Below, piece by piece: positions 30,673-64,000 of a DNA stretch of 64,000 nt. The stretch comes from an uncultured Actinomycetes bacterium (GTDB lineage: Bacteria; Actinomycetota; Thermoleophilia; RBG-16-64-13). The DNA is taken from contig CAVPLM010000003.1 of the NCBI GenBank assembly GCA_963706025.1, forward strand, positions 128,001 through 192,000. Reading direction: 5' to 3'. The notes under the pieces were generated by a model. It was not told where the DNA came from. It ran no database searches and was given only the letters and a program-made list of their open reading frames with translations. The translations under genes and the position numbers were made by a program. The stretch's first letter is position 1; every line of letters begins with the position of its first letter.

Positions 30673-31943
30673 CTAGCCGAGGTCGCCGGGCAGTGCGGCG
30701 TTGCCGGGCACGCCCGAGGCGAAAGGTATCGGGGGTCTCGCCCGGAGGCCGAGATGGAACTCCAGATGATCGACGATGCGCACCGCCGCCTGCCCATCAC
30801 CGTAGGGGTTGACGCCATCGCCATCGCCGCGTAGCGACCGGGGTCGGTGAGCAGCAGCACCAGTTCGCGGGCGACCGCCGTCGTGTCCGTCCCTACCAGC
30901 CGGGCGGTGCCCGCCTCGATGCCTTCGGGCCGTTCCGTGGTGTCGCGCATCACCAAGACCGGTTTGCCAAGCGTGGGCGCTTCCTCCTGGATCCCCCCGG
31001 AATCGGTGATGACCACGTCCACAGCTTTCATGAGGTGGACGAAGGGATGGTAGGGGAGCGGTTCGGTGAACACCACCTGGCGCACTCCCTCGAGGACTCC
31101 CCGGAACGTCTTCCGCACCAACGGGTTGAGGTGGATGGGAAAGATGAAAGTGATGTCCGGCAACCGCTCGCTCACCTGCTTGATGGCTAGGGCCACCCTT
31201 TCCATGGGCATCCCCCAGCTCTCCCGCCGGTGGACCGTCACCAGCACCTTGGGCCCAGGACGGTCGAGGGCCGACGCGATGCGGCGTTCCCAAGTCGGAG
31301 GCGCCGTCGCTGCGGTCGCGAGCAGTGCGTCGATGACCGTGTTGCCGGTGACGAGGATCCCCTCGGGGTCGGCGCCCTCGCGAAGCAGGGCGTCGCGGGC
31401 CGCGACCGTAGGAGCGTAGTGAATGGCGGCCAGCCGGTCGGCCAGGCGCCGGTTCATCTCTTCGGGATAGGGGCTGTAAATGTTGTCGGTACGGAGGCCG
31501 GCCTCCACGTGGGCGACGGGGATCATGCGGTAGTAGGCGCCGAGGGCCGCCGCGAAGGTGGTGGTGGTGTCACCGTGCACGATCACCAGGTCGGGCTCCT
31601 CGGCGACGAGCAAGGGGTCGATACCGCTCAGGACCGCCGACGTGATATGACCCAGCGATTGGCGCTCGCGCATTATCTTGAGGTCGTGATCGACGGGGAT
31701 AGAGAACGCCTCGATCACTTGGTCGAGCATCTCCCGATGCTGTCCGGTAAGGCAGGTGATCACCCGGAGGGTCCCGCGACGCTGCAACTCGAGAACCACA
31801 GGGGCCATCTTGATAGCCTCGGGGCGGGTGCCGAAAGTGACGAAGACAGTCGGTCGGCGGGCGCCTGCGCCGTTGCCGGCCGTATGGTCGGGGGTCTCGT
31901 TCCGGGCACTGGGACGAGGGCCGGCAGTCACATCACCTGTCAC
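30673..31943 (-). CDS. wecB: UDP-N-acetylglucosamine 2-epimerase (non-hydrolysing), frameshift near 30813
   Basis: GTRPEAIK, GQHREM, HGDT, HVEAGLRT, HRRE, DSGGIQEEA; terminal NPYGDG lies in the adjacent frame. Confidence 0.93.
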
Positions 31944-32102
31944 AATTGTCCTCCGGGCTTCATCGACTCCTGCAGGGACTCTAGCCCAGGGTCAGGCGAA
32001 GAGCAAGCGGGGCGGCACGGCCCGCAGTAGGCAGCCAGAGGCTATTCCGATAGAATTCGGGAGATTCGGTGCGCCGAGACAACTATCCGAAGGATGGTGG
32101 CC

Positions 32103-32606
32103 ATGGGCCGCTTTCTCGATGAACGGGGACGCATCTTCGGCAAAGTGAACGTCGTCGACATCCTCGTCCTTCTCGTCATCATCGCGGTGGTCGTCTTCGC
32201 CGTGGTTCGTTTCACAGGGGCGAGTTCGGAGGCCGTACCTCTGAAAGTGACCTACACCGTGGAGGGTGTCCGCCAGCTGACGGTCGATGCGATCCAAGAC
32301 GTGGTTGATGTGAACGGGACGGTGAGGGACGAGGGGGGCACGGTCCTCGGCAAGGTTGACAGTATCGAGGTGACGCCTACAGAAGTGGAGTACATGACGC
32401 CTCAGGGTCAACCGGAAGCCTTCGATTCGCCCATCTTCAACGACGTCAAGATCATCGTCCGCGGCGAGGGTTCTAAGTCCGGTGAAACCCTGCGCATCGG
32501 CAGTGTCCCTATGCGGGTAGGCAGGAAGATCACCCTGATCGGCAGCGGGTTCGAGGTCCAGAGCGTGATCTGGAAGGTCCGCGAGGGCCAGGAGGCACTG
32601 AAGTAG
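32103..32606 (+). CDS. DUF4330 family membrane-anchored protein
   Basis: FLDERGRIFGKVNVVDILVLL N-terminal signature followed by a TM helix. Confidence 0.8.
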   Translation: MGRFLDERGRIFGKVNVVDILVLLVIIAVVVFAVVRFTGASSEAVPLKVTYTVEGVRQLTVDAIQDVVDVNGTVRDEGGTVLGKVDSIEVTPTEVEYMTPQGQPEAFDSPIFNDVKIIVRGEGSKSGETLRIGSVPMRVGRKITLIGSGFEVQSVIWKVREGQEALK

Positions 32607-32607
32607 C

Positions 32608-32675
32608 GGGCGTGGCCATGAAGGGAGCCCGGCCATGAAAAGGGCGCGGCCGTGAAGAAGGCGTGGCCATGAAGG
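32608..32675 (+). repeat. Four tandem 17-bp units (core GGCCRTGAA)
   Basis: Cores at 32614, 32631, 32648, 32665; exact 17-bp period. Confidence 0.85.
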
Positions 32676-60590: not shown

Positions 60591-60796
60591 GCCTCTTCAC
60601 CCTTGCCCGTTGTCGTGCTCTCCCTCTGTTGCCGGGCCTCTCTTGCGGTAGTCCACGAGCGGGGGCTTCGCGCAGGAGAGCCTCATTCTTGGGCTGTCTC
60701 GCGGTCTCCGTGCTAGACTGACCACGTTCGGCGCCGGACTTCGGTACGCGTTCGCGTTCGCCACCGGCCAAGGACTGAGGGAAAGGGAGGAGAGAG

Positions 60797-62830
60797 ATGA
60801 GACTCGGCTCCAAGAGTGTCGTGGCCATTGTCATCCTGGCCGCAATCCTGATCATGACTATGGCAGGCGGAGCTCTGGCTGCTCCACCGTGGCCCGACGC
60901 ACCCAACTCCTGGTGGGTCAGCAACTACGGGGTCACCGAGACCCAGGTGGGTACTGTCGCCGATGGCTACGCCGACGGGCTTTTCCGGCCCGCCAACTCC
61001 GTGACCCGGGGCCAGGCCACCAAGATGGTGGTGAACGGTCTGGGTGTCGATACGCTCGATCCGGCCGCGGCGACGTTCCGGGATGTGCCCAAAGGGCACA
61101 CCTTCTTCGTTTATGTCGAGGGTGCTTACGACGCGGATCTCGTCACCGGCTATCCCGTGACCGGCGGCCTCGAGTTCCGGCCGAACAACAACATGACCCG
61201 GCAGCAGGCCAACACCGTGCTGGGACGCTACCTGTCTGATACCGAGATTCTGGTCACCGGCGTGATCCACGGGACCGGCGGCCTCACCTACGCCTCGCTG
61301 GAGCTCTGGTATGCGGCTCAGGGGAGTTTCTATCTGAACGGCTTCCTGGATGCCGCTCAGGTAGCCCTGGTGCACCGGCCGGCCACCGCCTACCTGGTCT
61401 ACCACGGGGTAGTACAGGGATCGAACGGCAGGCTGAACCCCCTTGCGACGCTCAATCGGGCTCAGACGGCTGCCATGGTGCTGCGCACGGCAGAGGAAGC
61501 GGACGAGATCAGCACCCCGCCACCGGCTCCCACCGGGCTGGCAGTCATCCCGGCCAGCCCTGGTAGGGATACCACCCCGCAGGTGACGGGCACGGCTCTT
61601 CCCAGCAGGCCGGTTGCAGTCTACGACACCTTCGGCGGGGCCACGACGAAACTCACCGAGACCACCACCAACGCGGCCGGCATCTTCTACGCCGACCTGA
61701 CGGTGCCTCTGGTCGACGGCACTCACGTGTTCACGGCCAAGGTCAAGAATGCGCTGGGCGTGGTGTCGCCGGCGTCGGCGCCGCGCAACTACGTCCTGGA
61801 CACCGTGGCGCCTACCGGTTCCATCACGGCGCCGGCGGTGCCGTTGGGGCAGCTTGATGCAGCGGTCAACAGCGACAACCCGTTTTCGCGGCGACTGCCG
61901 CGGATGAGCGGAGTGGGGTCGACAGCGTGGCGTTCGAGTATGCCACCGCCGCGGCCCCCACGACCTGGATCCCCGTCTCGACGGACGAGGACGGCGCGCC
62001 CTACGCGGCTGTGTGGGGAGCGACCTCCCTGGCCAACGGACAGTACCTGTTCCGGGCCGTCGTCACCGACGCCGCCGGCAACACCGCCACCCTGGCGAGC
62101 GTCAAGGTCACCGTAGACACCACGGCTCCCACCGTGCAGATAGCGCCTGGATCGTCTGGAACCTCGGGTCGATGACGTCTTCTACACGAAGGAACGCAAG
62201 CCCCTGTTCGGCGCGACCGCCGAGGACCTCACCGGCGGAGCCGCGGGGACTCTGCCGAGCGGGGTGGCGATGGTGGAGTTCTTGTACGCGCCTATCACTC
62301 CGGCGCCGGATGCCTGGGGCGACTTCTCCCTGATCTCCTCCGATCCGGGCAGCTCCGGCTTTGCCACCTATGATGCCGCCGGTATTCCTCCCGCGGGTAT
62401 GCCGGACGGCCACTATCTGTTCGCGGTCCGTGCTACCGATCGGGCCGGCAACGAGAGCCTGCTCCTGACCGGCAATCCCGCGACCTACGTTGCGGGAGTG
62501 ACCCAAGAGGTCGTGATCGACAACGCGGCCCCGACCGGGAGCATCACGGCCCCCGCTGCCGGGACCGTGACGACCACCACGCCGGCTTTCACTGCCAACG
62601 CGAGCGACGCGCTCTCCGGAGTGAAGCAGGTGGTCTTCCAGTATTCGGAGGATGACGGTTCGCCCAATTGGATCACGTTGTCGACAGACACCGCCGCTCC
62701 CTATCAAGCCCTTTGGGATGGCGGCCTCACCGACGGAACGGATTACCTGCTGCGGGCGGTGATCACCGATAGGTTGGGCAACGAGTTCGTCACGCCGACG
62801 GTGGCCGTTACGGTCACCCTCCCCTTGTAG
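60797..62830 (+). CDS. Secreted SLH protein with bacterial Ig-like (Big) domains (frameshifts near 61885 and 62145)
   Basis: SLH TRGQ/TRQQ/NRAQ; repeated DTVAP/DTTAP/DNAAP and TD.AGN Big motifs. Confidence 0.82.
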
Positions 62831-62832
62831 GA

Positions 62833-64000
62833 ATGCGGCCCACTAGGTACGGGGTGGTGGCTGCGACGAGGGCTGTGATGCGGAGGCGGGCTCCCTTCGC
62901 GGCGCCGGATAGGGCCAGAAGGGGCCCGGCTGGGCTACTGCGCACGATCTTGGTCACCGCTGCGCTGGTGGTCATGCTGACGATCCTGGTCTTTCCCGCG
63001 GGGGCCGAGGCCGTCAGCTACAGCGCTCAGGAACTGCAGCTCGTGCAACTGCTGAACGACTACCGCGACGAGCCTGGGCCTAGAGCCCCTCATGGTATCC
63101 GACCTCGTCTCCGACGCCGCCGAGAAACACAGCTCCGACATGGGCAAGTACGAGTTCTTCGCCCACAACACCGTGGCTTCGGATTGGTTCCCCGTCGGCG
63201 CCGACGCCCGAGTCCGCATGGCGATGTGCGGCTATGCGTATCCCATCGCGTGGGGTGAGGACATCGCTGCCGGCTTCTCCAGCGCTTCGGCGTGATCCAG
63301 GCCTGGAAGGACTCCCCCGAGCCACAACCGGCTGATGACCATCCTCGTACTACCGAGTGGCGGGGGTCGGGCTCGTCTACACTCAGGGCTCTCCCTACGG
63401 CTACTACTGGACCGTCGATTTCGGGGCATACGTCGACTCGACCGCTCACTGGCCGGGGACCCCGCCATCTTCGACGACGACCACCACCGCTCCGCCGGTG
63501 AGACCACCACCACGACCTCACTCCCTGTTACCACGACGACCACGACGGCTTCGACGACCACCACCGCGCCCAGTACGACCAGTACCACTCTCGCGGGGGT
63601 GAGCTTCCCCGACGTCCCTCCGGCGCACAGGTTCTACGAGGAGATAGTGGGGCTCGCTTCGGCCGGAGTGGTGTCGGGGTACGATGACGGGCTCTTCTAT
63701 CCCAACGACCTTGTGACTCGGGCCCAGTTCGCCAAGATAATCGTACTGGCCTTGGGCAGGCACACGGCCGAGATCGACAACGTCGCGGACCCCACCTTCA
63801 CCGACGTCCGCTACGCGGGCAGCGACTACCCGTTCGACTACGTGGAAGAAGCGGCGGGACTGGACATCATCCAGGGCTATAGTGATGGCAGGTTCGGCCC
63901 CCAAGCTAACGTGATCCGGGCTCAACTCGCCCTGATGCTCGTGCGTGCGGGCGGAAGCAGCCTTGAACAGCCGCCGGCCGACTATTCAGGTCCGTTCGCC
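62833..64000 (+). CDS. CAP/SCP-domain protein + Thr-rich linker + SLH domains (frameshifted, runs off window)
   Basis: QLLNDYR, AEKHSSDM..FFAH, GEDIAAG, W..SP, YWTVDFG; SLH VTRAQFAK, IRAQLA. Confidence 0.8.

Follow-up and report, generated by a model that had tools for sequence, protein, structure and literature searches.

We describe here a cell-envelope locus in a 64,000-nucleotide stretch (hereafter the window) of the genome of an uncultured Actinomycetes bacterium, contig CAVPLM010000003.1 of assembly GCA_963706025.1, positions 128,001 to 192,000. The locus, at 30.5-64 kb of the window, holds genes for a wall polymer, among them one for a polysaccharide pyruvyl transferase of the CsaB type, and a run of genes for proteins with S-layer homology (SLH) domains. 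We consider it likely, judging from the genes and their relatives, that this envelope locus has been inherited vertically in an uncultured family of Actinomycetota with a single membrane, and that it works like the SLH and pyruvylated secondary cell wall polymer (SCWP) system of Bacillus and Paenibacillus. The observations behind this reading are the gene content, its conservation and synteny, the co-variation of CsaB with SLH, and the conserved Arg and Gly of the SLH domains. We see in it an already known mode of anchoring, in a lineage that has been little studied, and not a new kind of envelope. Its novelty is modest, and lies in a CsaB clade that is specific to the family and whose presence tracks the SLH repertoire among the family's genomes.

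Results

All the elements that the original prediction had named from the letters alone were found by Pfam at 30.5-64 kb: wecB/mnaA, DUF4330, Wzy_C, three glycosyltransferase domains (GT-B in the prediction, here GT4, glycosyltransferase family 4), TagA, CsaB, a MurJ paralogue and eight SLH frames. An M23 peptidase and an extracytoplasmic function (ECF) sigma factor are also part of the cluster, and the MnaA, TagA and CsaB genes all lie within 10 kb. The features are listed below by window coordinates and strand (ORF, open reading frame; aa, amino acids; E, expectation value); G602, G399 and G089 are genomes of the same family, G602 being of the same genus.

30546-31943, minus: wecB/mnaA, non-hydrolysing UDP-GlcNAc 2-epimerase, for UDP-N-acetylmannosamine (UDP-ManNAc) supply (PF02350 Epimerase_2, E 8e-105; TIGR00236, 431.8 bits, cut-off 210)
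32094-32606, plus: DUF4330 protein (PF14221, E 5e-26; same position in G602, G399 and G089)
32663-34774, plus: Wzy_C or O-antigen-ligase-like membrane protein (PF04932, E 1e-12; syntenic in three relatives)
34771-35997, plus: first GT4 glycosyltransferase (PF00534, E 4e-34)
36027-37256, plus: second GT4 glycosyltransferase (PF13692, E 1.5e-10; weak TuaH-like match)
37253-39040, plus: window ORF with the third GT4 domain (Pfam GT4)
37253-39440, plus: gene joining this third GT4 domain to TagA, broken near 38697 and 39385 (GT4 and WecG domains; WecG/TagA, E 4e-56)
38538-40721, plus: WecG/TagA and PS_pyruv_trans in one window ORF (Pfam)
39501-40721, plus: CsaB-type polysaccharide pyruvyl transferase (PF04230, E 2e-34), with its own TTG start at 39501
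40798-42570, plus: MurJ-family flippase, one of two paralogues in the genome (PF03023, E 1e-93; TIGR01695, 342 bits, above cut-off)
42644-44405, plus: M23 peptidase with three C-terminal SLH domains (one gene in G399 and G602; frame change in the window near 43.3 kb)
44474-46075, plus: three SLH domains with an N-acetylmuramoyl-L-alanine amidase, Amidase_3 (Pfam; frame change near 45.8 kb)
46340-48119, plus: SpoIID-domain protein with C-terminal SLH (Pfam and G399 orthologue)
49832-51884, plus: protein of about 700 aa with C-terminal SLH and an N-terminal domain without Pfam match (one 708 aa ORF in G399; frame change near 51.13 kb)
51999-52826, plus: ECF-type sigma factor within the run of SLH genes (Sigma70_r2 and r4; best NCBIfam model of the BldN family, below cut-off)
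53894-54637, plus: small SLH protein (PF00395, E 8e-17)
56037-60516, plus: large surface protein with SLH and Big_1 immunoglobulin-like (Ig) repeats (four ORFs in the window; one 1321 aa ORF in G399)
60797-62830, plus: SLH protein with Big_13/Big_7 Ig repeats (790 aa in G399)
62833-64000, plus: CAP/Big_7/SLH-type protein in several frames, running past the window end (SLH, E 1e-25; 552 aa G399 orthologue with CAP, Big_7 and SLH)

The eight SLH frames of the window (PF00395 above cut-off) start at 43173, 44342, 46578, 51105, 53819, 56019, 60779 and 63296, and a ninth begins just beyond the window end. In the whole genome (here G000) we counted 123 PF00395 matches, and the genome's own hidden Markov model gave 73 SLH frames with 152 domains; seven of the 73 are copies on duplicated contigs, so about 66 are non-redundant. 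Two further PS_pyruv_trans paralogues (C19:33079-34020 and C4:54731-55537), four LytR-CpsA-Psr (LCP) genes, two Glycos_transf_4 genes and a second copy of MurJ (C5:36804) also lie elsewhere in the genome, and the idea of a single island encoding the envelope had to be given up. The C4 paralogue lies upstream of an SLH frame of 840 aa (C4:57114-59636), at a distance of 1.6 kb.

In SpaA of Paenibacillus alvei, Arg43 (TRAE motif), Gly29 (GIIxG) and Trp13 bind 4,6-Pyr-ManNAc, and SLH3 has TRAQ (PMC6081394). The position of SLH-Gly29 is kept in 120 of the 121 G000 SLH domains and the motif Arg in 117. In the amidase protein (44474), the SLH block aligns to the Sap SLH structures 9g93, 6bt4 and 3pyw with E values of 3e-12 to 3e-10. 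Judged by their G399 orthologues, most of the local SLH proteins are wall hydrolases (M23, amidase, SpoIID), protease-like proteins or Ig-repeat proteins.

CsaB and the SLH repertoire were found to vary together within the family (f1). SLH was detected in 57 of 60 f1 genomes. An orthologue of the locus CsaB was present in 32 of 55, and the 245 genomes of 11 other families of the class gave one weak match. Both listings were available for 52 f1 genomes, which are kin and not independent of each other. Of the 32 that bear CsaB, 31 have 27-73 SLH matches; among the 20 that lack it, 15 have 0-5. Mixed states of CsaB and SLH occur even within single genera (g253 and g256). In the wider GTDB-based phylum sample, the locus CsaB was matched at E 1e-20 or better in 18 of 401 genomes, and SLH in 72 of 401 (a count that includes 2 unpublished genomes), with at least 10 matches in 36 of the 400 others, from at least 12 families. 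The belief that SLH would be close to unknown in this phylum did not survive these counts.

The CsaB of the locus belongs to a lineage of its own. Of 21 named records with an orthologue (48-83% identity), 20 are labelled with Actinomycetota-type names and one is titled only 'bacterium'; the metagenome-assembled genomes (MAGs) concerned are titled Gaiellales, Thermoleophilia, Actinomycetes or Actinomycetota. Identity does not exceed 36% to named records outside the clade (25-34% to Bacillota) or 37% to other families of the phylum sample (34-37% for family f32). A quick maximum-likelihood tree was built from 95 rows, after 3 of 98 had been dropped for stops or short length; in it the family CsaB forms a clade of 23 rows with support 100 and a stem of 1.05, not nested in Bacillota. 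No donor lineage was visible among the named records and tree rows.

The locus keeps its place in relatives. In all three family relatives first examined, gyrA and TagA are on the same contig. The order gyrB-Ddl-wecB-glycosyltransferases-CsaB-MurJ-SLH is collinear in G602 and G399, and G089 is collinear from gyrA to the SpoIID-SLH gene, gyrB being outside the stretch compared. The relatives with collinear island and flanks span three genera, with GyrA identities of 81-98%. Metagenome contigs (Logan) from four runs of four studies tile 22-41.9 kb of the window, and single pieces cover 27686-30656, 29929-30989, 30952-31832 and 31544-33288. Chimerism at 22-32 kb had been named as a risk; these contigs tile the junction, and the synteny in three genera agrees with them. 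When cut into 8 kb bins, the window ranks between the 14th and 96th percentile for tetranucleotide distance (441 bins in the whole genome), with the island at the 91st-96th; this bears out the earlier impression that the composition is akin to that of the core genes. The contig is not chimeric and the composition of the locus is native.

A different picture was seen in a further genome, G030, with a GyrA 93% identical. Its C16:1-16000 has the same flanks, but the slot between them is occupied by a GT4 gene and by another TagA-like gene, 39% identical; G030 has only 3 SLH matches genome-wide. In this comparison the slot behaves like a wall-polymer locus that can be exchanged.

The contig that carries the window is 882 kb long and belongs to a genome of 3.66 Mb in 30 contigs, all with a GC content of 0.62-0.66; completeness is 92.3% and contamination 7.3%. 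We noticed that the SLH proteins of contigs C1 and C8 are 100% identical with their order mirrored, and that C29 and C17 duplicate parts of C8 and C16 as well. Part of the contamination estimate is probably explained by these duplicated contigs. The closest named GyrB matches are two 'Actinomycetota bacterium' MAGs (73% and 68% identity), remaining matches being at or below 57%. CsaB rows from genomes that are 'same phylum' by GTDB-based kinship are identical to records of Candidatus Aquicultor. WhiB (PF02467) occurs in 209 of the 401 genomes of the phylum sample (14 unpublished genomes are counted here), and only in Corynebacterium among 14 control genomes. On these three grounds the phylum is Actinomycetota, and the earlier placement held when checked. 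WhiB-like (Wbl) regulators are a hallmark of the classical actinobacteria. The same WhiB search gave 0 matches in G000 and 0 in the 31 further genomes sampled from its class, which marks the lineage as an atypical, deep member of the phylum.

A single-membrane envelope is expected, since Omp85/BamA (PF01103) had 0 matches in G000 (92% complete) in a search that was positive in 7 of the 14 control genomes. A diderm organization with an OmpM-type outer-membrane tether (SLH-porin and Bam) was rejected on the same ground. Metagenome contig pieces at least 99% alike to window 22000-41900 came from freshwater, sediment and freshwater-sediment samples of four studies (runs X1, X2, X4 and X8). Such habitats must thus harbour the organism or close strains repeatedly, and the run that holds most of it may be the source sample.

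Upstream of the locus lie mnmG, mnmE, jag, yidC, dnaA, dnaN, recF, gyrB and gyrA, with dnaA at 12246-13769 and dnaN-recF-gyrB-gyrA extending to 22028. The cumulative GC skew has its minimum at 12-16 kb. Together with the position of dnaA, this makes the cluster origin-proximal, as had been proposed, starting about 17 kb from dnaA. Downstream of gyrA are tRNA-Ile(GAT) and tRNA-Ala(TGC), at 25556-25745, where the summed contig depth was 20-60 times that of neighbouring bins in all four metagenomes, as is expected of tRNA sequence shared across organisms.

Within the run of SLH genes, an unannotated ORF at 54963-55847, separated from the sigma gene by two ORFs, matches the C-terminal end of a 337 aa protein whose gene comes immediately after the sigma gene in G399. 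The two may form a sigma/anti-sigma pair controlling the surface proteins.

Discussion

We infer the polymer chemistry, the SLH binding and the order of every step from the enzymes encoded. MnaA would supply UDP-ManNAc, and the GT4-TagA protein would transfer ManNAc to undecaprenyl-PP-GlcNAc and probably add another sugar. CsaB would then add a 4,6-pyruvate ketal, and the two further GT4 enzymes would extend the unit. The product may be flipped by the MurJ paralogue, the Wzy_C protein presumably acting as polymerase or ligase of the wall polymer, and the LCP enzymes encoded elsewhere would attach it to peptidoglycan. The roughly 66 SLH proteins, which in the locus are wall hydrolases, protease-like and Ig-repeat proteins, would bind this polymer non-covalently. 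In agreement with the second step, the TagA part of the fused G399 orthologue matches the solved TagA 7mpk (E 9e-46). The GT4-TagA fusion is a single ORF of 726 aa in G089 and 721 aa in G399 (L208:5031-7196), with CsaB as a separate gene in both.

Several observations weigh against this reading. Among the CsaB-bearing genomes, G582 has only 3 SLH matches, and five genomes without a CsaB match have 12-31; four of these five are less than 94% complete or in at least 320 contigs, and the fifth, G463, is 96% complete. The best NCBIfam model for CsaB, TIGR03609 S_layer_CsaB, scores 194 bits with a cut-off of 213.1, and CsaB has no sequence match in PDB. The locus MurJ passes the cut-off of the lipid II MurJ equivalog and may therefore not be specific for the polymer. 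In the SLH domains, the motif reads T-R-(Q/A)-Q, with Q and not E as last residue in 115 of 121, and the Trp13 position holds W in 13 of 121, the others having mostly P with an adjacent Y or F. Finally, we counted 14 frame changes over 8 genes at 37253-64000 against the intact G399 orthologues. Several seemingly separate window ORFs are therefore pieces of one gene, such as the M23 and SLH parts of one protein, or the ORF at 49832 and the SLH frame at 51129. If these changes were real, the locus would be a decaying pseudogene cluster in this strain, which we regard as distinctly improbable. Near 38697 the window loses the common frame of GT4 and TagA, and TagA reads on into CsaB without a stop; tblastn with the relatives' fused GT4-TagA protein places the frame switches at 38698/38739 and 39383. 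The metagenome contigs are mixed: base 38697 is retained in X8, as in the window, but absent in X1 and X2, and base 39385 is retained in X4 but absent in X2, the absences restoring the relatives' frames (X4 gives no cover at the former site, nor X1 and X8 at the latter). GC at third codon positions (GC3) remains high in the expected frames across the break. Core genes upstream look clipped too, MnmE being without the first 49 profile positions of TrmE_N; we also saw an ORF at 4136-5749 with only a partial GIDA domain. The breaks and the clipped core genes together suggest residual single-base indels in the assembly. A TagA-CsaB fusion as a real feature was rejected in view of the GT4-TagA gene and separate CsaB of G089 and G399, and of the one-base differences in some of the metagenome contigs. 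Because of this mixed contig evidence, and of CsaB's own TTG start, we treat it as an assembly or strain artefact; GT4-TagA is the conserved form in the family, and the in-frame TagA-CsaB ORF is doubtful.

Other explanations concern what the locus makes and where it came from. CsaB might pyruvylate another glycan, such as a capsule or exopolysaccharide, with SLH binding something else and co-location reflecting a shared envelope neighbourhood. The PS_pyruv_trans family is indeed broad, with matches in 9 of the 14 control genomes including E. coli, the score below the CsaB equivalog cut-off would fit, and pyruvylated non-ManNAc wall polymers of unknown function have been reported in Actinobacteria (PMC6801904). 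However, CsaB adjoins mnaA and TagA, both ManNAc enzymes, within the family its presence tracks the SLH repertoire, and the pyruvate-binding Arg is almost always kept in the SLH domains, which leaves this alternative improbable. A true crystalline S-layer, in which one local SLH protein self-assembles on the pyruvylated polymer, is possible though on the whole unlikely. The likeliest protein for it, and the best candidate for an S-layer-like or adhesin-like function, would be the SLH-Big_1 protein (56037-60516), which is large, has N-terminal SLH and is encoded directly downstream of the polymer genes, as in the Paenibacillus and B. anthracis loci; SLH proteins of Propionibacterium freudenreichii also bear the S-layer name. 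Against it, enzyme domains are found on most of the local SLH proteins, the 56-60 kb gene shows poor conservation even in G602, of the same genus, and no local SLH protein matched a known lattice domain beyond the SLH block in Pfam, among the G399 orthologues or in the PDB comparison. The 'probable S-layer protein' of the original prediction is better called a candidate. The 631 aa ORF at 49832 was likewise rejected as an S-layer candidate, as it is the N-terminal part of the SLH protein of about 700 aa, and distant homologues of this N-terminal domain carry the peptidase-type PF20773 or PF13485. As to provenance, a recent transfer from Bacillota, or a chimeric or mis-binned contig, would account for the restriction of the CsaB orthologue to family f1 within the class, for the high percentile of the island bins, and for the lack of a pyruvyl transferase in the two named genomes nearest by GyrB outside the family. 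We hold it to be highly improbable, given Bacillota CsaB identities of at most 34% and a clade outside Bacillota, the collinear island and flanks in three genera, the contigs of four studies across 22-41.9 kb (27686-30656 and 29929-30989 included), and the even GC of all 30 contigs.

It had been suggested that the locus may be ancient and not recently acquired. The absence of a recent Bacillota donor stands by these CsaB comparisons; ancient transfer and ancestral retention are not distinguishable without a rooted, reconciled analysis. A stronger proposal, that the family has kept an ancestral Terrabacteria SLH/CsaB module by vertical descent since before the loss of the outer membrane, that the module was expanded into the family's main surface-display device (about 66 SLH frames vs two sortases), and that a lineage-specific GT4-TagA gives a distinct polymer, is tentative and in our judgement rather doubtful. 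Were it true, the repeated joint loss of CsaB and the SLH repertoire within single genera would let one follow, as in a natural experiment, how such an envelope system comes apart.

The pairing of SLH with CsaB is regarded as an ancient means by which Terrabacteria keep outer layers attached to the wall. Our locus offers a concrete, well-conserved actinobacterial example, with a complete gene set, a family-specific CsaB, a TagA fused to GT4 and, in relatives, joint loss of CsaB and dozens of SLH genes. It may be useful for tracing envelope evolution or for finding new SLH-ligand pairs, and leaves the understanding of how the system works unchanged. SLH in Actinobacteria has been noted before (PMC6030368; PMC6801904), in 33 species in one account (PMC6081394), and SLH/CsaB is described as kept by 'a few examples within Actinobacteria' (bioRxiv 10.1101/2021.05.31.446380). 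Our literature search found no paper on SLH in this lineage and none showing CsaB-dependent SLH anchoring in Actinomycetota. The earlier statement that no experimental description was known in the phylum stands, as far as this search goes, for the dependence on CsaB, but not for SLH proteins as such: those of P. freudenreichii are guanidine-extractable surface-layer proteins, and slpB has been mutated (PMC5462946).

Among known systems, the OmpM/SlpA tethers of diderm Terrabacteria (Thermus, Deinococcus, Negativicutes) likewise rely on SLH and CsaB for recognition of a pyruvylated wall polymer (bioRxiv 10.1101/2021.05.31.446380), but G000, with no Omp85/BamA detected, is expected to have no outer membrane to tether. 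Candidatus Aquicultor (family f32) and other SLH-rich Actinomycetota families resemble our lineage in being uncultured, with many SLH matches (at least 17) and a CsaB homologue; their CsaB, in contrast, is only 34-37% identical and stands elsewhere in the tree, among Bacillota rows. SlpA, SlpB and SlpE of P. freudenreichii are SLH-anchored surface proteins from the same phylum, yet from a WhiB-bearing Actinomycetes lineage with few SLH proteins, and the accessible part of the report gives no link to CsaB or a pyruvylated polymer (PMC5462946). With Sap/EA1 and CsaB of Bacillus anthracis the locus shares an SLH block that aligns to the Sap SLH structures. In B. anthracis, too, SLH domains are also carried by wall hydrolases. 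Unlike there, our locus has no Sap/EA1-like assembly domain, and the SLH family, with about 66 frames in 3.66 Mb, is much larger. From the SpaA-SlhA system of P. alvei it differs in the fusion of TagA to a GT4 domain, in an SLH motif that ends in Q almost throughout with Trp13 mostly replaced, in a CsaB at most 36% identical to named CsaB outside the clade and at most 34% to those labelled Bacillota, in that no S-layer gene was identified, and in its actinobacterial host. What the two have in common is MnaA, TagA and CsaB clustered with SLH proteins (PMC6030368; PMC6081394), and a conserved SLH Gly29 and motif Arg, the TRAQ-type motif being found also in SLH3 of SpaA.

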